From Nitrososphaeria archaeon (GTDB lineage Archaea; Thermoproteota; Nitrososphaeria; Nitrososphaerales; JAAOZN01), in NCBI GenBank assembly GCA_029775855.1, contig JARVJZ010000003.1, forward strand, positions 128,001 through 192,000: DNA of 64,000 bases. The letters are read 5' to 3'. The notes beneath the pieces are model-generated. The model was not told the origin of the DNA and did not search any database. It worked only from the letters and a program-made list of their open reading frames with translations. This document shows positions 8,514 through 19,780 of the stretch, piece by piece. A program made the translations under genes and the position numbers. Within the stretch, counting starts at the first letter, position 1, and every line of letters starts with the position of its first letter.

Positions 8514-9644
8514 TTGGCTACATATAGAGTTGCTGTAATACCTGGAGATGGTGTAGGGCCAGAAGTTATACGCGAAGGCAAGAAGGTATTAGATGCGGTG
8601 AGTGAAGTAGACTCTTTTGAAATAGAGTGGGTAGAGTACCCTTTCGGCGCAGAGTATTACTTAAAGACAGGCAAGACGCTTGACGAAGATTCACTTAAAG
8701 AACTCAAGCGGTATAAGGCGATTTATCTCGGTGCCGTAGGAGATCCGAGGGTTCCTCCAGGGGTATTAGAGCTAGGGATTCTACTCAAGCTACGCTTCTA
8801 TATGGATGAATATGTGAACCTTAGACCAGTTAAGCTTTTTGAAGGCGTGGATACCCCTCTTAGAAATAAAAGTGAAAAGGATATCTGCTTTGATGTAGTT
8901 AGAGAGAACACCGAAGACTTTTACATCGGTGTAGGGGGAAGAGTAGCGAAGGTCCCTATCAGACAACAGCATAACCTTATGCGGGAGCTCTATAACCTTA
9001 AGTTCAATCTGGATATCGAGGGAGATGCGGATGAAATAGCCTATCAATTAGGCGTCATAAGTCGAAGGGGTGCTGAGCGTGTCATAAGATACGCTTTTGA
9101 GCTTGCTGAGAGAAAGAAGAAGCGAAAGGTATCTTCAGTTGATAAAGCGAATGTCTTGACAGAAGTGTATGGTCTTTGGCGAGAAGTCTTTGCTGAAGTC
9201 TCTAAATGTTATCCACATATTGAGACAGAGTATATGTTTGTAGACGCTGCTGCCATGTGGTTCGTCAAAAACCCAGAATGGTTCCAAGTAGTCGTTACCC
9301 CAAATCTCTTTGGAGACATCTTAACAGATCTAGGTGCGATGATACAAGGAGGCCTAGGTGTTGCACCGGGAGCAAATATAAACCCTTTCGGCACTTCAAC
9401 CTTTGAACCCATACACGGCTCAGCCCCAAAGTATAAGGGGCAGAACAAGATTAACCCTATTGCGACGATTCTCGCTGGCGCTCTTCTTCTTGAAAACCTT
9501 GGGTTATACAGCTCTGCGGCTAAAGTTGAGGATGCGGTTAGAGCGGTGCTGAGGGAGGGTAAGGTTCGCACCTACGATTTAGGCGGTTCTTCAACCACAG
9601 AAGAAGTAGGTGATGCGGTTGCAGAAAAGCTTAGGAGTTCTTAG
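8514..9644 (+). CDS. leuB: 3-isopropylmalate dehydrogenase
   Basis: [37 protein letters not shown]. Lies in the BCAA gene context. Confidence 0.85.
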
Positions 9645-10023
9645 GTCTCCAACCCAAAGCCAAGCTACCCCCTATAACTCCGAGTATCAACCCTAGCAGG
9701 AAGCCGCCGCCTCCAAATATGCTCAGTATAGATAAGACGAGGATAGCTGCTCCCCAACCACTACTCCCAGCGGGTCGATAATAGAGCATCAGTGCTGCAA
9801 ATATGGTGAGAGCGCCTAACACTAAGCCGACTACGCTCAACGCGAACATCAATCTTCCGAGGGCTAAAACGATACTACCAGATAAACCGCGTGGCGTCAT
9901 AACATAATCTAAGGTGTTAGTTAAAGCTTGGGTAGATAAACCAACTACTAACCCATTCGCGAAGATCAATGCACCAGCGGCTAGGGTGAGGATGAATGCG
10001 GTGTAGGGTTTTTCACCAGACAT
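9631..10023 (-). CDS. Small membrane protein (DUF6114-like)
   Basis: Four hydrophobic segments, [21 protein letters not shown]-terminus. Confidence 0.6.
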
Positions 10024-10051
10024 ACTGTTTACCTTTCTTTATGAGATTATT

Positions 10052-11575
10052 TTAAGATATCTTAGTGTTGTTGTTCATCTTCTTTTGCTTGAGTAAAATT
10101 TTGTTCATCCCCTTTATAAGCGCTTCAACACTAGCCACAACGATGTCATCACCCATGCCTCTGGCTGAAGATATGTTGCCCATGCTGTCCCCAACTTTTA
10201 CTATAACCTCTGCCATAGCGTCTGAGCCGCCGCTTAAAGCCTCAAGCCTATACTCCTTCAAAAAGATCTTCGCAACCTTCTCAGTCACGCTTTGAATAGC
10301 CTTAACAGCTGCGTCAACAGGCCCTACTCCAGTAGCTGAAGCGACATAAATCCTACCATCAAGGTCGAGCTTAACCGAAGCAGTAGGCACTACATTAATA
10401 CCAGTCATAACAGCAAAATCGAGCAGCTTTAGAACCTTTTCATTCTCTTCAGGAACCTTAAGGACAGAACGCGCTATAGCTTCTACATCTGAGTCTGTTA
10501 GTGTTTTACCTTTATCCCCCAGCTCCTTAACTTTGCTGACTATTAACGCAAGCTGCTCATCGTTAGGTGATAACCCCATTTCTTGGAGCTGAGCCCTTAT
10601 GCCGTGGCTACCAGCGTGCTTGCCGGCTTGAAGCCACCTTGTTCTACCAACTACTTCTGGGTCTAGGGGTTCGTATGTAAAGGGTAGAGATAGTATGCCG
10701 TGTGTATGTATACCAGACTCATGTCCAAATGCGTTATCACCTACAATCGCCTTGTTAGGTTGCACAATTACCCCAGTTAGCTTAGAGACCAGTCTGCTCG
10801 TCTCGTAGATGAGTTTCGTGTTGATTTTAGTCTTCTTCATGTAAAGGTTGTGGAGAGCCATCACAACCTCCTCTAGCGAAGCGTTGCCGGCCCTTTCACC
10901 AAGTCCGTTTACAGTTACATGCACCTCTGATGCCCCAGCTTCAACAGCAGCGATGGAGTTTGCTACAGCCAGTCCAAAGTCGTTATGGCAGTGAACAGCG
11001 ATAGGTACATCAACAACGCTCTTCACCTCCCTAACTAACATAGCCATCCTAGACGGTGTTGAGACCCCAACAGTATCAGGAATATCGAGCCTATCAGCAC
11101 CAGCATCCACTACCGCCCTATAGAACTCCTTTAGAACTTGAGGCTCTGTTCTAGTAGCATCTTCAGCAGAAAACTCAACTTTAACGCCGTGCTTCTTCGC
11201 ATACTCAACACCTTGAATAGCCTTCTCAAGAGCTTGTTGTCTGCTCATCTTAAGTTTATAGTTGAGATGAATGTCTGAGGTTGCAATAAATAGATGAATG
11301 CAATTCACATCGGAGCTTAGTGCAGCATCTATATCGCTCTTCTCCACCCTAGCGAGTCCACAGACTTCAGCGGTCAACCCCTCTTTAGCAATCATTCTCA
11401 CAGCTTCAGCCTCGCCTTTTGATGCTACTGGAAAGCCTGCTTCAATGGTATCGACACCTAACTTATCTAGCTGCCTCGCAATTTCTAGTTTATCCTCTGA
11501 TGTCAATGTTACACCTGGTGTCTGTTCGCCGTCTCTGAGTGTGGTGTCAAATATCCTTATGTACTCATCTACCAA
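10052..11575 (-). CDS. leuA: 2-isopropylmalate synthase
   Basis: [28 protein letters not shown], regulatory domain GVGPVDA. Confidence 0.92.
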
Positions 11576-11589
11576 CCGCTAAACACCAT

Positions 11590-12081
11590 CTAGCCTCTTG
11601 CTATTGCTGTTATGCCCGTTCGTGAAATATCTCTGATTCCGAAGGATGTTAATATCTTTATGAAGGCATCTATCTTATCGGGGGCACCAGTAACTTCAAT
11701 CGTCATGGTTTCTTCACCTACATCAACAACTTTACCTCTAAAGATTTGGACATAATTCATTAAATCTGCACGAGCCTTCTGGTCGGATGCATTAACCTTA
11801 ATCAAAGCAAGTTCGCGCACAACCGAATTCTTAGCTTCAAGCCTCACTATCTTGATAACATCTATAAGCTTAGCCAACTGCTTCACAAGCTGCTCAACTG
11901 TCGATTCATCACCATTAACCACGATAGTCATCTTAGATAAGCCAGGCTGCTCAATCGGACCAACAGTTATACTTTCAATGTTAAAGCCTCTTCGTCTAAA
12001 CATGTTTGAAGCTTTAAAGAGTACTCCAGGCTTGTTCTCGACTATCGTTGATAATATGTAGCTTTCACTCAATTTTTTCAC
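11590..12081 (-). CDS. ilvN: Acetolactate synthase small (regulatory) subunit
   Basis: VENKPGVL..FRRRGFNIESITV ACT domain, RELALIKV. Confidence 0.95.
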   Translation of the reverse strand: MKKLSESYILSTIVENKPGVLFKASNMFRRRGFNIESITVGPIEQPGLSKMTIVVNGDESTVEQLVKQLAKLIDVIKIVRLEAKNSVVRELALIKVNASDQKARADLMNYVQIFRGKVVDVGEETMTIEVTGAPDKIDAFIKILTSFGIRDISRTGITAIARG

Positions 12082-13775
12082 CCATTCGGACCATAGAGTA
12101 TGTCCTTCAAACCTGCACCTGGTGGGACGAAGGGGTATACATCCTCTTCAGGATCTATTGGTACATCTATTACGGTTGCAACTTCGCTGAGTAGTGCATG
12201 GTTAAATGCCTTTTCGAATTCTTCAAGTGTATGCGCTCTTATACCTACTGCACCATATGATTCGGCTAATCTTACAAAGTCTGGGGTGCTTCCAAATTTC
12301 ACTGAAGAATATCTTCTGTTGTAGAAGATTCTTTGCCACTGCTCTACCATACCAAGAGACCTATTGTCCATTATCACAACTATAACAGGTATCCCCTCCT
12401 CCACACATACAGCCAGAGAGTTCTCAGTCATACAAAAGCTACCATCACCAGCCAAGTCGACCACAGGAACATCTGGTTTTGCAACTTTAGCGCCTATTGA
12501 GGCTGGGAAACCGAAGCCCATTGTGCCCAATCCTGTAGAAGTTATCCAAGTCCTAGGTCTCACTACTTTGTAATGTATCTCAGCGAACATTTGATGTTTT
12601 CCAACTTCAGTAGCAAGTATGCCTTCAGGAGGGAGCAGTTGCCTAATTTTCTTTATAATTTGAACGCTCATTAGTCTGTTTGAGCCGTCTAACTTAGCAT
12701 TCCTCCTAACCTCTTCCCTAACTTCTTCTACGCGCCTCAGCCAAGGTGAGTCGTTTCTCTGCTCGACTATCTTACTCTTAAGCCTCTCATATATCTGCTC
12801 TAGAGTTACCTTGGCATCTCCGACTATAGGAAGATGAACACGCTTATTCTTACCTATTTCAGAAGGATCAATATCTATATGTATGATCTTAGCATCTGGG
12901 CAAAAGGCGTCGAACCTGCCAGTAGAGCGGTCTGAGAAGCGAACCCCCACAGAGAGCAGACAGTCTGTCTCAAGCACAATCCTGTTAGCTTCAGCAGTTC
13001 CGTGCATACCAATCGGCCCAAGCGCAAGAGGATGATTCTCTGGAAAAGCACCCTTACCTATTAATGTTGTAACAACAGGAGCCATTAGAAGCTCAGCGAT
13101 CTTTCTGAACGGCTCGTGCGCATTCGAAAGATTTACTCCACCACCACCCCAAAGCACAGGCCTTTCAGCAGATAGAAGAAGGTCAACCGCTTTTTCCACC
13201 TGCAGGGGATGTGGTGTGACAACAGGCCTATATCCTCTTATCGTAACCTTATCTGGAAAGATCATATTTGCCTTCTCTTGCTGAACATCCTTTGGTATAT
13301 CAACGAGGACAGGGCCGGGTCTGCCGGTTGAAGCTATGTAGAATGCTTTCTTTATGTCAGAAGGTATCTCCTCTGCCCTCATTGGTTGAAATGTGTACTT
13401 TGTTATAGCTGTGGTTATCCCTATTATATCGACTTCTTGGAACGCATCTTTGCCTATCATGGCTCTTGGGACCTGACCTGTTATGGCTACTATGGGTGAA
13501 GAGTCCATGTAGGCTGTTGCTATTCCTGTCACCAAGTTGGTTGCACCTGGGCCAGAAGTTGCCATGCATACTCCGACTTTGCCGCTTGCTCTAGCGTATC
13601 CATCAGCCATATGTGCTGCTGACTGCTCGTGTCTGCATAAGATAGATCTTATGCCACTGCTGTAGAGAGCATCGTAGATAGGTAGGTTGGCTCCACCTGG
13701 TATACCAAACACAACAGAGACATTTTCTCGTTTAAGGGCTTCTATAACCGCTTCTGCACCGATCATCTCAACCAT
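12078..13775 (-). CDS. ilvB: Acetolactate synthase large subunit
   Basis: RHEQSAAHMADGYAR, TSGPGATN, GDGSF...N ThDP motif. Confidence 0.96.
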   Translation of the reverse strand: MVEMIGAEAVIEALKRENVSVVFGIPGGANLPIYDALYSSGIRSILCRHEQSAAHMADGYARASGKVGVCMATSGPGATNLVTGIATAYMDSSPIVAITGQVPRAMIGKDAFQEVDIIGITTAITKYTFQPMRAEEIPSDIKKAFYIASTGRPGPVLVDIPKDVQQEKANMIFPDKVTIRGYRPVVTPHPLQVEKAVDLLLSAERPVLWGGGGVNLSNAHEPFRKIAELLMAPVVTTLIGKGAFPENHPLALGPIGMHGTAEANRIVLETDCLLSVGVRFSDRSTGRFDAFCPDAKIIHIDIDPSEIGKNKRVHLPIVGDAKVTLEQIYERLKSKIVEQRNDSPWLRRVEEVREEVRRNAKLDGSNRLMSVQIIKKIRQLLPPEGILATEVGKHQMFAEIHYKVVRPRTWITSTGLGTMGFGFPASIGAKVAKPDVPVVDLAGDGSFCMTENSLAVCVEEGIPVIVVIMDNRSLGMVEQWQRIFYNRRYSSVKFGSTPDFVRLAESYGAVGIRAHTLEEFEKAFNHALLSEVATVIDVPIDPEEDVYPFVPPGAGLKDILYGPNG

Positions 13776-13833
13776 AATTCACACACTCCATATGCATACC
13801 AACCCACACCTTTGAATATTATAGATGTGGGCT

Positions 13834-13914
13834 CTAAGATACAATCAACAATACGAGCTGCACAGCTAATAATTTGCTACGCACTTCCTTCGAAGTTTGC
13901 AGCTCGCTTATCAA
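13834..13914 (-). CDS. Putative ilvB leader (attenuator) peptide MISELQTSKEVRSKLLAVQLVLLIVS
   Basis: TTG...TAG, 26 codons, 9 of the last 12 are Leu/Val/Ile. Starts about 27 nt after a TATA-like box and ends 58 nt before the ilvB ATG. Confidence 0.65.
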   Translation of the reverse strand: MISELQTSKEVRSKLLAVQLVLLIVS

Positions 13915-13940
13915 GCCCAGCAGTAGCTACCTTATACCTT

Positions 13941-13974
13941 GTTAATAAGTTTTCTCAAAAGCAAATATATTAAA
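13941..13974. promoter_or_regulatory. Back-to-back TATA-like boxes for the ilvB leader (-) and ilvD (+)
   Basis: Minus strand ACTTATTAAC (13941-13950) preceded by a purine-rich BRE-like run; plus strand AAATATATTAAA (about 13963-13974), about 27 nt before ilvD TTG. Confidence 0.55.
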
Positions 13975-14001
13975 GGTTGTGGAATATAGGTTAGGGTCTA
14001 T

Positions 14002-15669
14002 TTGAGAAGCAGTAAAATTAAGGATGGTGTTGATAGAGCGCCTCATAGAAGTCTTCTAAAGGCTGTGGGTGTCAAGGATGAAGACATGCAGAAGCCCTTC
14101 ATAGGAATAGCAAACTCGTATACGGACATTGTGCCTGGGCATATTCATTTAAACGAGTTAGCTAAAGTCGTTAAGCAAGCTGTAAGGGAGGCTGGCGGCG
14201 TTCCATTCGAATTTAACACCATAGCTGTGGATGACGGGATAGCTATGGGTCATCTTGGTATGAGATATTCTCTACCATCAAGAGAGTTGATAGCAGACTC
14301 TGTGGAGACGATGGTTCAAGCACACTGCTTTGACGCACTAATCTGCATAGCGAGCTGCGACAAAATAGTTCCAGGTATGCTCTTAGCCGCAGTCAGACTC
14401 AACATTCCCACAATCTTTCTTAGTGGCGGCCCTATGCCAGCAGGTAGGTTAAAAGATGGTAGGGCAATAGACTTCTCAACCGTCTACGAATCAGTAGGCG
14501 CATACTACAAAGGTCAAATCACACTAGAAGCGCTTAAGGAGATCGAGGGACTCGCGTGCCCAACTTGCGGCTCCTGCGCTGGACTATTCACAGCCAACTC
14601 AATGAACTGCGTCTGCGAAGCGTTAGGAATAGCACTACCGGGCAACGGCACCGCGCTAGCAACATCTCCAGAGCGGTTAGATCTAGCACGCAAAGTTGGG
14701 AGAAGCATCTTGAAGCTTTGGGAGTTAGATCTTAAGCCTCTTGATATAATAACTGATAAGTCGATTGATAACGCATTCGCCTTAGATCTAGCTATAGGCG
14801 GCTCGACAAATACTGTTTTGCATCTTCTTGCTTTAGCTAAAGAGGCTGGCATCGACTACTCCTTAAAAAGAGTTGATGAGCTTTCAAGTAAGGTTCCTCA
14901 TCTATGTAAGCTGAGCCCAGCATCAAACTTTCATCTTGAAGACTTTGCGGCTGCTGGAGGTGTGGGTGCGGTGCTTAAGGAGTTGAGTAAGCTCGATGAT
15001 GTAGTTGATCTGAAGCAGATTACAGTTACCACAAAGACTCTTGGAGAAAATATCCGTGACTCTATCATTCGTGATGCTCAAGTCATAAGAACTGTTGAGC
15101 AACCATACAGCAGAATTGGTGGAATAGCCGTCTTATTCGGAAATTTAGCGCCCGAAGGTTCTGTAGTTAAAGTTGGTGCGGTAGACCCAGCAATTAAACA
15201 GCATAGGGGTGAAGCGGTTGTGTTTAACTCAGAAGATGAAGCCCTTGAAGGTATCAAAGAAGGTAAAGTCGATAAAGGCGATGTGGTCGTGATTAGATAT
15301 GAGGGGCCTAAAGGTGGACCTGGTATGCCTGAAATGCTCGCACCTACATCTATGATTGTTGGCATGGGGTTAGGCAAGGATGTTGCCTTAATCACTGATG
15401 GGCGCTTCTCAGGAGCTACTAGAGGAATATGTGTGGGACATGTCTCACCAGAGGCTGCTGCTGGAGGACCAATAGCACTAATAGAAGACGGCGACACCAT
15501 AAAGATAGATTTAGAGAAGAAGTCTATCACAGTAGAGCTTTCAAATGAGGAAATGGACGAGCGTAGAGCAAATTGGAAACCTATTGAACCACGCTTTAAG
15601 TCAGGCTACTTAAGAAGATACTCTATGCTGGTAGGCTCAGCGAGTAGAGGCGCAACGCTTACCTCCTAA
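14002..15669 (+). CDS. ilvD: Dihydroxy-acid dehydratase
   Basis: [39 protein letters not shown]. Confidence 0.97.
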
Positions 15670-15717
15670 TTCAGAGAAAACCATAAGAAGACCAAGATTG
15701 AACAATATAGAAGAAAG

Positions 15718-16365
15718 ATGGATGCTGCAAGCTTCATTATCAAAGTGCGTAAAGAACTTAGCGAAGAGAACAAAAAGATACTAGAGCACCCTTTCATAAA
15801 AGATGCAGAAGCGGGGAAGCTTTGTGAAGACAAGATTAAGTGCTTCATTACACAACAAGACTATATCATATCCCACGACCTACGCTCTCTAGCATTAATG
15901 CTTACAAGAAGCAAACACCAAGATGAAACCGATTTCTTCCATCCTCTAATCCAAGGAGATATAGAGGCGTTAAAAAAGCTACATATTTTTGCCGAGGAGC
16001 TGGGTTTAAAGATAGAAGATTTTACCACACAACAACTAATACCTGAAGCAGTATCATACACACACTACCTTGCTTGGCTTGCCCTCTACGCTAATGCAGG
16101 TGAACAAGCCGCTGCCCTAATAGTCAACCTTCCAGTCTGGGGAGAAGCGTGCAGAAGATTTGGCTCAGCCTTAAAAGAGAAGTATGGATACAAGAAGCTT
16201 GACTTCTTTGAACTCTTCTTACAACCTTTTGACGCGGTAGAGGCTGCAGCATTCAAGGTCATAAATAGGTATATTGAAAGATTTAGTATAACGATGGAGC
16301 GGTGCGTGAAGATGATTCAACGCTACGAGCTGATGTTCTGGGATAGCATCTACAGACTTGTGTAA
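15718..16365 (+). CDS. TenA family protein (TenA_E-like, no catalytic Cys motif)
   Basis: ILEHPF, SYTHYLAWLA, VNLPVWG, YELMFWD. Confidence 0.82.
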   Translation: MDAASFIIKVRKELSEENKKILEHPFIKDAEAGKLCEDKIKCFITQQDYIISHDLRSLALMLTRSKHQDETDFFHPLIQGDIEALKKLHIFAEELGLKIEDFTTQQLIPEAVSYTHYLAWLALYANAGEQAAALIVNLPVWGEACRRFGSALKEKYGYKKLDFFELFLQPFDAVEAAAFKVINRYIERFSITMERCVKMIQRYELMFWDSIYRLV

Positions 16366-16367
16366 AA

Positions 16368-17039
16368 TTGATGCACAGAGCCTTTACCAATTACCTTTGG
16401 TCTTCAATAAAAAACATCTTCGACGCGATACTTAGACACCCCTTCATAAAAGGCCTTGTCAACGGCAACCTAGAGGAAGCACGATTCAAGTTCTATGTTA
16501 TACAAGACAGCCTATATTTAAGTGAATACGCCAGAGTCTTAAGCTTAGCTGCAGCTAAAGCGCCTTCAGACGATTGGTTTCTCGCCTTCAACGAGCACGC
16601 TAAATTAGCGCTTGTTGCTGAAAGATCTCTTCACGAAAGTTTCTTTAAAGAATGGGGTTTAAGCGAAGAGCAGATTAACGCTATACCAATGATGCCAACA
16701 AACCTAGCCTACACCTCATATCTTAGAGCCGTAGCCCTCTCAGCACCCTTCCACGATACATTAGCGGCGCTACTGCCATGCTACTGGATATACTGGGAAG
16801 TAGGTAAAGAATTGGAGAAGCAAGGCTCTAAGAACCCCATTTATCAGAGGTGGATAGAAACATATTCTTCAAAAGAGTTTGGCGGCATATGTGAAGTCGT
16901 TATAGAGATCGTTGAGCAAGCGTCAAAAAGCCTAACAGTAGAGCAGAAGGAAAACATGAAAAAGCACTTCACCACCACGAGTAGATACGAATACCTATTC
17001 TGGGATGCAAGCTACAATATGGAGCATTGGCCCCTCTAA
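16368..17039 (+). CDS. tenA: Thiaminase II / aminopyrimidine aminohydrolase
   Basis: HPFI, YVIQDSLYL, LLPCYWIY catalytic Cys, YEYLFWD. Confidence 0.92.
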   Translation: MMHRAFTNYLWSSIKNIFDAILRHPFIKGLVNGNLEEARFKFYVIQDSLYLSEYARVLSLAAAKAPSDDWFLAFNEHAKLALVAERSLHESFFKEWGLSEEQINAIPMMPTNLAYTSYLRAVALSAPFHDTLAALLPCYWIYWEVGKELEKQGSKNPIYQRWIETYSSKEFGGICEVVIEIVEQASKSLTVEQKENMKKHFTTTSRYEYLFWDASYNMEHWPL

Positions 17040-17115
17040 AACTCTATACATCAAATATAGCGTTAAACTTATATTAGAAGTGTAGAGAGAGTAAGGCTCA
17101 ACAGAGGTAAACCAA

Positions 17116-18711
17116 ATCGATTCAAAGATCGATGTGCTCGACACAACGCTAAGGGACGGCGCTCAAACCTACGGTATATCATTCACCCTCCAAGATAAAC
17201 TAAGTATAACACAAAGGCTCGACGAGCTAGGTATAAAGTATATTGAAGGAGGCTGGCCTGCATCAAACCCAAAAGACTCAGAATTCTTCAACATAGCAAA
17301 GACACTCAAACTAAAACACTCGGAGATAGTCGCCTTCACCAGCACAAAAAAGAAGAACACACAACCAGACAAAGACTTAAACCTCAAGGCAGTCATATCC
17401 TCAGGCGTAAAGAGCGTTGTAGTCTTTGGAAAAGCTTGGAACCTACATGTTAACCACGTGCTGAAGATAAGCCTAGAAGATAACCTCGACATAATAAAAG
17501 AATCGATTCTCTTTCTTAAAAGTAAGGGGTTAAATGTTATCTTCGACGCTGAACACTACTTTGACGGATACAAAGCAGACCAAACTTATGCGCTTAAAGT
17601 CCTACAAGTAGCTGAAGAAGCTGGAGCAGACACGCTCGTTTTATGCGACACTAACGGAGGAACCCTACCACACGAAGTCCATACAATAGTGCTCAGAACG
17701 AAGGAGAAGGTAAGGAGCAAGCTAGGAATACACGCGCACAACGACGCAGGGTTGGCTGTAGCTAACACAATTATAGCTGTATCTGCTGGTGTAAGGCACA
17801 TACAAGGCACAATAAACGGATTAGGGGAAAGATGTGGTAATGCTGACCTATGCCAAATACTACCCACACTACATTTTAAAATGGGCTTCACCATCCTAGA
17901 ATCACATAAACCACGAGACCAGCAGCTAAAAGGGTTAACCGCCCTATCAGAATATGTATATGAACTACTCAACCTCCAAGGAGTAGCTAATCAACCCTAT
18001 GTAGGCAAAAACGCCTTCAAGCATAAAGCCGGTGTGCATATCGACGCCATAAAAAAAGTGTATAAAGCATACGAACATATCGACCCATCACTAATAGGCA
18101 ATGAAAGAGGAATCTCTATTTCCGAGCTCTCCGGCAGAGCAAGCATCGTAAGCTTGGCTTCTGAGCTCAACCTTGACCTAAGCAAAGACCATAGCTTAGT
18201 TAACGAAGTTCTAAAAGAAATTAAGGAGCTTGAAGCAAAAGGATACCACTTCGAAAACGCTAAGGCAAGTGCACACCTCATCCTACTTAAAAAAGCTGGG
18301 CTACTAGAAACCCCATTCAAATTGGTCTCTTGGAAAGCATCGTCTAAAATGGATGGTAAAAATCGATGCTCAGCCGAAGTAACAGTTGAATTTTCTGGTG
18401 AAATCCATAAAGAAAAGGCAACGGGCGTAGGTCCAGTCCACGCACTTGATGTAGCTTTTAGGCAAGCGATCCTACGCAAATATCCACAGCTTTCAAACAC
18501 TAAGCTCATCAACTACAAAGTTACGGTAGTCGACAGCATAAAAGCTACAGCATCTGTAGTAAGAGTCTTCATAGAGTTTGAAGACAATGGTAAAAGATGG
18601 GCAACAACTTCAGTCTCGTCAAATATAATCGAGGCGAGCATAAAAGCCTTAGCTGAAGGATACACCTACAAACTGCTACTAGACAAATCGCATAAGAAAC
18701 TAAACACATAG
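17116..18711 (+). CDS. cimA: Citramalate synthase
   Basis: DTTLRDGAQ, EGGWPASNPKD, FDAEHYFDG, HKAGVH, SELSGR (Geobacter-type CimA). Start is uncertain: ATC 17116 or GTG 17134. Confidence 0.88.
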   Translation: MDSKIDVLDTTLRDGAQTYGISFTLQDKLSITQRLDELGIKYIEGGWPASNPKDSEFFNIAKTLKLKHSEIVAFTSTKKKNTQPDKDLNLKAVISSGVKSVVVFGKAWNLHVNHVLKISLEDNLDIIKESILFLKSKGLNVIFDAEHYFDGYKADQTYALKVLQVAEEAGADTLVLCDTNGGTLPHEVHTIVLRTKEKVRSKLGIHAHNDAGLAVANTIIAVSAGVRHIQGTINGLGERCGNADLCQILPTLHFKMGFTILESHKPRDQQLKGLTALSEYVYELLNLQGVANQPYVGKNAFKHKAGVHIDAIKKVYKAYEHIDPSLIGNERGISISELSGRASIVSLASELNLDLSKDHSLVNEVLKEIKELEAKGYHFENAKASAHLILLKKAGLLETPFKLVSWKASSKMDGKNRCSAEVTVEFSGEIHKEKATGVGPVHALDVAFRQAILRKYPQLSNTKLINYKVTVVDSIKATASVVRVFIEFEDNGKRWATTSVSSNIIEASIKALAEGYTYKLLLDKSHKKLNT

Positions 18712-18778
18712 ATTAACATATGACAGAAGGCTTTTAACCAATCAACTAGTAGGCTATAGGCAACAAGGAGGTAGACAA

Positions 18779-19780
18779 TTGGCGAAAATATGGTATGATA
18801 AAGACACCACTCTAGACGCTCTAAAGCAAGAGGTAATAGCTGTAATCGGATACGGAAGCCAAGGCTCAGCACAAGCCTCCAACTTAAAAGATTCAGGATT
18901 AAATGTGATAGTGGGGCTAAGAGAAGAAGGCGCAAGCTGGAACAAAGCGATTAGAGACGGGCATAAAGTATCCAAAATCAAAAAAGCTGTAGAGGAAGCA
19001 GACATAATCCACATACTAGTCCCAGACATGATCCAACAAACACTCTACGAAAAGGAAATAGCACCAACCTTAAGAAAAGGACAAGCCCTAAGCTTCTCAC
19101 ACGGCGCAGCCATACATTGGGGCTGGATCAAACCACCAAACTGGGTAGATGTAATAATGCTAGCGCCGAAATCACCAGGGCAAAGAGTCAGAGAGCTCTA
19201 CCTCGAAGGATTCGGTACACCAGCACTAGTAGCTGTGCACCAAGACTACTCTAAAAAAGCTTGGCCTAGAATCCTAGGGTTAGCGAAGGGTGTTGGCTGC
19301 ACACGAGCCGGTGTAATTGAGACCACATTTAAAGAGGAGGTTGAAACCGATTGGTTCGGTGAGCAAGTGGATCTATGTGGAGGTGTTGATAGGCTTATCC
19401 GAACTGCCTTTGAGGTTTTGGTGGAGAACGGCTATCAGCCTGAAGTAGCCTACTTTGAATGCTTGCACGAGTTAAAGCTGATTGTAGATCTTATCCAAAG
19501 ATATGGGATAAGTGGTATGTATAAGAGGGTGAGTGAGACAGCACGCTACGGCGGATTGACTAGAGGCGGCTTAGTGATAGATCAGCAGACCAAACGCAAG
19601 ATGCAAACTATACTCGACGAAATACGCTCAGGCAAATTCGCAGAAGAGTGGTATAGAGTCTACGCGAAAGAAGGACCAGCATCATTCAACAAATATCTCG
19701 ATGAGCTTCAAAAGCATCCCATAGAGCAGGTTGGGCTTAAACTAAGACGAATGATGTGGGCAGAAGGCGAAGTCAGCTGA
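18779..19780 (+). CDS. ilvC: Ketol-acid reductoisomerase
   Basis: IGYGSQG, APKSPG, ETDWFGEQ..LCGG, AYFECLHE; AGGAGGT SD upstream. Confidence 0.96.
   Translation: MAKIWYDKDTTLDALKQEVIAVIGYGSQGSAQASNLKDSGLNVIVGLREEGASWNKAIRDGHKVSKIKKAVEEADIIHILVPDMIQQTLYEKEIAPTLRKGQALSFSHGAAIHWGWIKPPNWVDVIMLAPKSPGQRVRELYLEGFGTPALVAVHQDYSKKAWPRILGLAKGVGCTRAGVIETTFKEEVETDWFGEQVDLCGGVDRLIRTAFEVLVENGYQPEVAYFECLHELKLIVDLIQRYGISGMYKRVSETARYGGLTRGGLVIDQQTKRKMQTILDEIRSGKFAEEWYRVYAKEGPASFNKYLDELQKHPIEQVGLKLRRMMWAEGEVS

Follow-up and report, generated by a model that had tools for sequence, protein, structure and literature searches.

Leader-peptide attenuation is a textbook bacterial mechanism. In the enterobacterial attenuators (ivbL-ilvBN, ilvL-ilvGMEDA, leuL and trpL) a short upstream open reading frame (uORF) carrying codons for the pathway product lies immediately 5′ of the operon, and in E. 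coli tnaC-tnaA the position of the ribosome at the end of the leader ORF gates termination-factor access beside the stop codon. Archaea, to our knowledge, couple transcription and translation and possess neither hairpin terminators nor Rho. In Corynebacterium glutamicum the ilvBNC transcript starts 1 nt before the start codon of IlvL, a leaderless leader peptide with Ile, Val and Leu codons; the accessible text of PMC11857589 describes a leader of 292 nt containing a terminator hairpin (H3), a competing hairpin (H2) and a further hairpin (H1) that shields the IlvL start and acts as an anti-antiterminator. The polycysteine sORFs of mycobacteria (the Cys ‘ribulon’) are, according to the accessible portion of 10.1101/834739, leaderless first cistrons on which stalled ribosomes alter downstream expression. 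A full-text literature search, with most subscription journals outside its range, returned no description of leader-peptide attenuation in an archaeon, only bacterial leader peptides and unrelated work.

The leader described here is a real feature and a candidate archaeal leader-peptide sensor, and both its anatomy and the conservation of that anatomy are demonstrated by the comparisons below. It sits inside the 226-nt spacer between the divergent ilvD and ilvB genes of a Nitrososphaeria archaeon (Table 1), within a window of 64,000 nt, the whole stretch of DNA analysed. The source genome measures 1.5 Mb with 43% G+C, and the closest named matches of its IlvB, at 59–63% identity, come from Nitrososphaeraceae, Nitrososphaeria and Bathyarchaeia genomes. 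From its spacing, the leuA-type gene is presumed to belong to an ilvB-ilvN-leuA operon. The surroundings form a branched-chain amino-acid cluster (8514–9644, 15718–17039 and 17134–18711, all on the + strand) whose genes include a leuB-type dehydrogenase, a tandem pair of TENA/THI-4 paralogues and a second synthase of the LeuA/CimA type. On the opposite side of the spacer, ilvD starts with UUG at 14002, a start that is needed because of the conserved RAPHRSLL N-terminus, and a TATA-like TATATTAAA (13966–13974, +) lies 27 nt before it; by this spacing ilvD, too, looks leaderless, and it stands back to back with the putative promoter of the ilvB leader.

Table 1. Features of the ilvB leader and its surroundings, in window coordinates.
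Feature	Position	Strand	Remarks
leuA-type 2-isopropylmalate synthase	10052..11575	-	Pfam HMGL-like, HCS_D2, LeuA_dimer; third gene
ilvN (small subunit)	11590..12081	-	Pfam ALS_ss_C and ACT_AHAS_ss; overlaps ilvB end by 4 nt
ilvB (acetolactate synthase large subunit)	12078..13775	-	Pfam TPP_enzyme_N, M, C
Shine-Dalgarno GGAG(UG) of ilvB	13784..13789	-	complementary to 16S 3′ end GGAUCACCUCCU
Hairpin b	13801..13833	-	arms 13833-13823 and 13811-13801, 11-nt loop; begins at first base after UAG
uORF (leader peptide)	13834..13914	-	TTG start; 26 codons LISELQTSKEVRSKLLAVQLVLLIVS plus UAG
Control codons L L A V Q L V L L I V	13840..13872	-	9/11 Leu/Val/Ile
P2 3′ arm	13847..13862	-	on control codons V-Q-L-V-L-L
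Inner hairpin ACUUC-GAAG-GAAGU	13883..13896	-	inside P2; sequence not conserved in L002/L003
P2 5′ arm	13898..13912	-	last start-codon base and next codons; RNAalifold
TATA-like box TTATTAA	13942..13948	-	27 nt 5′ of uORF start codon
ilvD	14002..15669	+	Pfam; opposite side of divergent spacer

For comparison, 190 ilvB loci were collected, yielding 78 distinct upstream regions with an IlvB at least 55% identical to that of the window. IlvB searches of metagenome and genome contigs recovered no relative closer than 75% identity, so for the exact leader covariation could be judged from three members of the genus, namely the window, L002 and L003. Two of the IlvB matches (L009 and L010, in G028 and G014) contain one TGA each within the matched stretch. 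The DNA of the window recurs in hot-spring metagenome runs, 12 of which, one of them RNA, contain part of it. The RNA run and three DNA runs were compared over positions 13500–14150: contigs of the RNA run fell only on the conserved parts of ilvB and ilvD, came from other organisms or strains, and in no case covered the leader, and the sole run with a contig across the whole interval, DNA run X3, represents a near-identical strain whose leader has no listed variant. No curated Rfam family was found at the leader when positions 9000–19000 were scanned with cmscan at E ≤ 10. The sole matches, sR4 (E = 1.1) and U7 (E = 9.4), lay outside the leader and below the gathering score; that to sR4, a C/D-box RNA, at 13277–13330 (+) and antisense within ilvB, reached 19 bits against a gathering score of 50 and is probably due to chance.

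A short uORF with clustered codons for the end products lies immediately 5′ of this biosynthetic operon, as the sequence-only reading of the window had noted in describing a leader-peptide-like frame with Leu/Val/Ile control codons ahead of ilvB. Its stop is 58 nt from the ilvB start, with a hairpin between the two. In L002 and L003 the frame, with a 3-nt in-frame indel, and its stop are kept, and the middle of the peptide diverges. The TTATTAA box is the putative promoter of the leader; its 27-nt distance to the uORF start equals the spacing found at ilvD. In L002 and L003 TTTATTAA occurs 29 nt 5′ of the same TTG, or 20 nt 5′ of the in-frame GTG chosen by the pattern search. Among 45 relatives, a strict pattern (regex) search placed a TATA-like box 18–31 nt (median 25) 5′ of an in-frame uORF start in 26, and five further leaders, that of the window among them, have CTTATTAA at the same distance by eye. 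From this spacing, the uORF is probably leaderless. Abutting the TATA-like box upstream (13951–13960, -) is TTTGAGAA(A/G)(A/G), kept in all three genus members and a possible BRE or regulator-binding sequence.

Enrichment of the uORF tail for Leu, Val and Ile codons was scored as the number of these residues among the last 10 codons of a frame ending ≤200 nt from ilvB. The window scored 7/10, matched by 2/100 shuffles, and elsewhere in the source genome Leu/Val/Ile-rich frame ends also precede unrelated genes: none of 20 candidate leader ORFs picked genome-wide (15 with Leu/Val/Ile-rich and five with His- or Thr-rich tails, downstream genes assigned by Pfam) preceded an amino-acid biosynthesis gene. 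In the same genome, a frame ending FVLVILTLLG stops 160 nt 5′ of the crude start of a Peripla_BP_6 gene (Leu/Ile/Val-binding family; G000:C2:252414-254107, L198), which could be chance or a mis-called start. The tail signal of a single genome is weak, and the case therefore rests on conservation among kin. Tails of at least 7/10 were present in 39/78 relatives, compared with 3.5% of 7,800 dinucleotide shuffles and 7/78 reverse complements; within the same order (L001–L030) they occurred at 20/30 loci, in 11/17 families. The 39 relatives scoring below 7/10 included all four scored loci with Bathyarchaeia or Bathyarchaeota titles. Across 44 distinct tails, pre-selected at ≥6/10 Leu/Val/Ile, these residues made up a share of 0.73–0.98 from codon −2 to codon −7, where it peaked, and of 0.59 at codon −1; the same pre-selected tails held 361 Leu/Val/Ile residues against 45 of Phe, Met, Ala, Gly, Trp, Cys and Tyr together, with Phe, Ala and Gly rare, no Met or Trp at all, and polar residues making up the remainder. 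Judged by this composition, the tails are not membrane-like.

The one pairing clearly beyond chance is a hairpin starting directly behind the uORF stop. The sequence-only reading had paired AGCCCACAUCUAUA (13833–13820) with AGGUGUGGGU (13811–13802) in a 10-bp helix, pairing b; both sequences are present at these positions and the hairpin is strong and beyond chance, with 11 bp instead of 10. It folds at −15.7 kcal/mol (z = −4.81; duplex energy −18.2 kcal/mol), 0/200 shuffles were as stable, and hairpins of equal stability occurred at 2/1375 crude gene stops and in 5/3000 random 39-mers of the source genome. In the partition function its helix has a probability of 0.87–0.98, with the ribosome absent or stalled, at 37, 65 and 80°C. 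A hairpin beginning 0–8 nt past the first stop base was predicted in 40/45 relatives and surpassed 95% of shuffles in 27 of these 40; among the 27 significant hairpins the start was offset by ≥3 nt in 18, and the distance from hairpin end to start codon clustered at 21–33 nt in 17. When 10 relatives were aligned, 86.1% of the cells of hairpin b were paired, compared with 76.3% after shuffling, and slid controls paired at 28–53% (maximum 52.5%). Six of the 11 pairs change on both sides, and 0/500 shuffles attained the covariation score. A covariance model built from the 10 sequences matched, among 90 sources, only its training set and L010, so the hairpins of other families are not alignable by sequence, and when 21 diverse post-stop regions were submitted to MAFFT/RNAalifold, no more than a core of 4 bp could be aligned.

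Several further features of this region were noted. Hairpin b includes an SD-like AGGUG in its 3′ arm (13811–13807, -; GAGGUG in L002), and 9 nt beyond it an AUG at 13797 opens a 9-codon mini-ORF (MHMECVNYG) spanning the ilvB GGAG, its UGA (13770–13768) overlapping ilvB codons 2–3; the frame is open in L002 and L003, where the stretch is nearly invariant, and was not seen in more distant relatives such as L005 and L019. In the window only, the hairpin loop AUAAUAUUC shows partial complementarity to GAAUUAUGG, which lies at the start of ilvB (13772–13822, -). With a ribosome modelled on the stop, the unpaired probability of the ilvB AUG in the window fell from 0.88 to 0.28 at 37°C. L002 and L003 have other loop sequences, and in these two leaders the accessibility of the ribosome-binding site (RBS) did not fall with the ribosome at the stop.

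The second conserved element is P2, a long stem within the uORF. Its arms CGAGCUGCA (13906–13898) and UGCAGCUCG (13862–13854) had been read correctly as a 9-bp stem, as had the ACUUC-GAAG-GAAGU hairpin inside it and the position of the 3′ arm on the control codons, the 3′ part of the uORF being paired. With RNAalifold over the three genus leaders the stem grows to 14 pairs (13912–13899 with 13861–13847; duplex energy −19.2 kcal/mol). Changes within the genus are only one-sided and preserve pairing (U-G to C-G, G-U to A-U), and the enclosed 40 nt diverge, with the 3-nt in-frame indel among them. The P2 region alone is not exceptional (z = −1.41; 19/200 shuffles), and in the partition function P2 forms with a probability of 0.27 at 37°C, rising to 0.92 at 65°C and standing at 0.80 at 80°C. 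In 13/45 relatives, where about two were expected, the pairing of the control codons with a uORF segment further upstream surpassed 95% of shuffles, a comparison among kin and hence not a clean test; the value for the window itself was p = 0.11.

In the sequence-only reading, the segment after the stop was proposed to have, besides its partner in hairpin b, two mutually exclusive others: UGGGCU at the 5′ end (13919–13914; pairing a) and UAUGGAGUGUG (13792–13782; pairing c), the latter containing the Shine-Dalgarno (SD) sequence of ilvB. Both are present where they had been placed, as is GGAGUG 8 nt 5′ of the ilvB AUG (13775); the archaeal 16S rRNA of the source genome, located with RF01959, ends in the complementary sequence of Table 1. 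Pairing a comprises 6–7 bp (duplex energy −11.6 kcal/mol) and pairing c 10 bp with one bulge (−8.8 kcal/mol). When the 19-nt post-stop segment was held fixed and the partner regions were shuffled 1000 times, neither exceeded chance (a, −11.9 compared with an average of −10.5 for the shuffles, p = 0.25; c, −8.8 compared with −9.4, p = 0.56). Pairing probabilities were then computed for the free leader and with a ribosome footprint on the control codons (stalled) or on the stop. Even with b blocked, and at 37, 65 and 80°C, helix a had a probability of ≤0.02 and helix c of ≤0.003 in all three states. Among relatives, a-type complementarity reached p ≤ 0.05 in 3/40 and c-type in 2/28, the rate expected by chance. 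Pairings a and c are thus chance complementarities, and the three-way exclusive pairing is not supported; in the proposed check by covariation and shuffling, hairpin b covaries and P2 is kept in the genus, and a and c stay at chance.

Accessibility of the SD gave a similar picture. In the window, GGAG was unpaired at 37°C with a probability of 0.78 in the free state, 0.67 with the ribosome stalled and 0.74 with it at the stop (0.72–0.78 at 65 and 80°C), and the RBS with 0.52, 0.49 and 0.45, respectively; the mean RBS accessibility of 45 relatives was 0.44, 0.46 and 0.45. On stalling, RBS accessibility rose by more than 0.05 in 10 of these 45 and fell in two, and on the move to the stop it rose in nine and fell in eight. 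Footprint-constrained folding, set beforehand as the check on an SD-hiding state, therefore went against that state in silico: SD accessibility is independent of ribosome position, in the window and as the mean of 45 relatives. Nor did in-silico thermodynamics predict an RBS-masking duplex that a stalled ribosome would open. For neither arm of hairpin b was there another partner that surpassed shuffles or was kept in L002 and L003, and when a 3:4-type partner was sought for the 3′ arm freed by a ribosome at the stop, with 150 nt of ilvB added, the partners differed among L001, L002 and L003.

That the post-stop segment switches among three partners, one of them masking the SD, with ilvB controlled by SD sequestration, is very improbable: complementarities a and c do exist, and a leaderless Cys-rich sORF of mycobacteria shows translational attenuation in the accessible portion of 10.1101/834739, but a and c are at chance, nearly absent from the ensemble and not enriched in relatives, and the switch is not supported because SD accessibility does not depend on ribosome position. 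Moreover, with transcription starting about 25 nt past the TATA-like box, part of UGGGCU may escape transcription. Classical transcription attenuation of the bacterial type, with hairpin b as an intrinsic terminator or part of one, is extremely improbable. The order of uORF, control codons and strong hairpin is correct for it, and a few relatives have U-runs past the hairpin, as L018 with GGGUUUUU. Yet the longest T-run in the window leader is 2, and without a U-tract terminator the bacterial terminator model does not apply, as had already been recognised from the sequence; the terminator hairpin H3 of the ilvB-II motif is likewise absent from the window leader. TTTT follows within 10 nt of the hairpin in 3/27 relatives, and runs of four T are no commoner in the spacer (22/45) than in an equal length of uORF (20/45). 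Given that hairpins after gene stops are also rare in this genome (2/1375) and so do not look like its terminators, an intrinsic terminator is not part of the conserved design. Such a role for b would also have the wrong logic, stalling then favouring termination. Among the hallmarks of an attenuator, mutually exclusive helices and an intrinsic terminator before the first structural gene are thus both missing.

Two other explanations leave the anatomy intact and dispense with sensing. The uORF might be translated for ribosome delivery or coupling, or to yield a small hydrophobic peptide that has its own function, and the tails of some relatives (for example L005, L006 and L136) are long enough for membrane helices; this is distinctly unlikely, since the tails are composed almost only of Leu/Val/Ile and polar residues, Met and Trp being absent and Phe, Ala and Gly scarce, the remainder of the peptide diverges even among members of the genus, and the stop, separated from the ilvB start by 58 nt and a hairpin, is far for coupling. 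Alternatively, the uORF might be incidental and P2 and hairpin b a protein-binding or stability element, the codons following from composition. Leu, Val and Ile codons all have U at the second position and can be mimicked by U/G-rich arms, Leu/Val/Ile-rich frame ends precede unrelated genes in the source genome, and the stretch after the hairpin is indeed G/U-rich, only one C occurring from 13811 to 13770. Against this account, which we regard as quite unlikely, dinucleotide shuffles that keep composition produce the tail in 3.5% of cases compared with 50% observed, the stop falls 0–8 nt before the hairpin and the TATA-to-start distance is as expected in most relatives, and the indel within the genus is in frame.

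On balance, the evidence tips slightly towards the leader of ilvB-ilvN-leuA being a ribosome-stalling sensor of Leu/Val/Ile supply. We infer its transcription start, the translation of its uORF and its regulation of ilvB from sequence, and the scheme would run as follows. Transcription would start about 25 nt past the TATA-like box, at the UUG or a few bases before it, and the uORF would be translated as a leaderless message. Once the leader had been made, P2 would close the leaderless start. When charged tRNAs were scarce, the first ribosome would stall on the Leu/Val/Ile codons. Unwinding by the ribosome was taken to reach about 8–9 nt past the first A-site base, a figure from bacterial work. 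A ribosome stalled at least two codons before the stop would then leave hairpin b folded, and one on the control codons would open P2, as suggested by the placing of the control codons at −2 to −7 and by the hairpin offset of ≥3 nt in 18/27 relatives; once the stop codon occupied its A site, the ribosome would have to melt most of the 5′ arm of b. Folded b may be read as the ON state, because its placement is that of a 2:3 anti-terminator and it has no 3:4, U-tract or SD-masking partner. The OFF event would hit the transiently unpaired, G/U-rich RNA behind the terminating ribosome. Several points speak against the sensor reading or its OFF step: the uORF start is UUG; P2 alone is no more stable than shuffles, and the pairing of the control codons in the window is not significant; and b is melted only briefly by a terminating ribosome, so that a kinetic window is needed.

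How the OFF state might be produced is a guess, and a doubtful one: FttA (aCPSF1)-dependent termination, or nuclease attack and mRNA decay. The source genome encodes FttA (TIGR03675, 801 bits, over the cut-off); one TGA lies inside the matched stretch (G000:C6:9296-11176, L212). A second, shorter beta-CASP match (303 bits, under the cut-off, profile positions 170–630) we take to be aCPSF2-like. According to the accessible text of PMC11616081, FttA binds and prefers U-rich RNA, which counts against the guess, the exposed stretch being G/U-rich without U-runs. That FttA monitors coupling by steric exclusion is proposed, without test, in the accessible text of PMC11616081 and PMC13681488. It appears unlikely, if conceivable, that on stalling the hairpin shields nascent RNA from FttA or from 5′–3′ decay, in a terminator-less archaeal amino-acid attenuation that would be conserved through much of this Nitrososphaeria-like order and would be an archaeal counterpart of Rho-dependent leader control.

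What is conserved in the leader is its uORF together with P2 and the hairpin behind the stop, and the three-way switch is not part of this. If the leader does sense Leu/Val/Ile through a stalled ribosome, it shows such control wired onto archaeal machinery. The relation of FttA-dependent termination to translation coupling is named as unresolved by the authors of PMC11616081 and PMC13681488, in the accessible text of both, and the leader, at about 140 nt, is a compact, mutable test object for FttA termination versus translation coupling.

Compared with the enterobacterial attenuators, the archaeal leader likewise has a uORF of product codons and, relative to the stop and control codons, a hairpin placed as the 2:3 anti-terminator, but it has no 1:2/2:3/3:4 alternatives, no hairpin followed by a U-tract and no SD for the uORF, and would operate on archaeal transcription machinery. 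The Rho control of tnaC-tnaA serves as an analogy only, for the FttA guess, the factor here being FttA/aCPSF1. It would resemble the mycobacterial Cys sORFs, as far as the accessible portion of 10.1101/834739 describes them, in having a leaderless, amino-acid-sensing sORF as its first cistron; in mycobacteria an RBS-sequestering duplex is blocked by the stalled ribosome, and here no such duplex is predicted. Unlike the leader of C. glutamicum as given in the accessible text of PMC11857589, with its 292 nt and hairpins H3 and H2, that of the archaeon is about 140 nt long, and neither a terminator nor a competing helix was found in it; like C. glutamicum H1, P2 covers both the uORF start and the control codons, a likeness of design rather than of homology.
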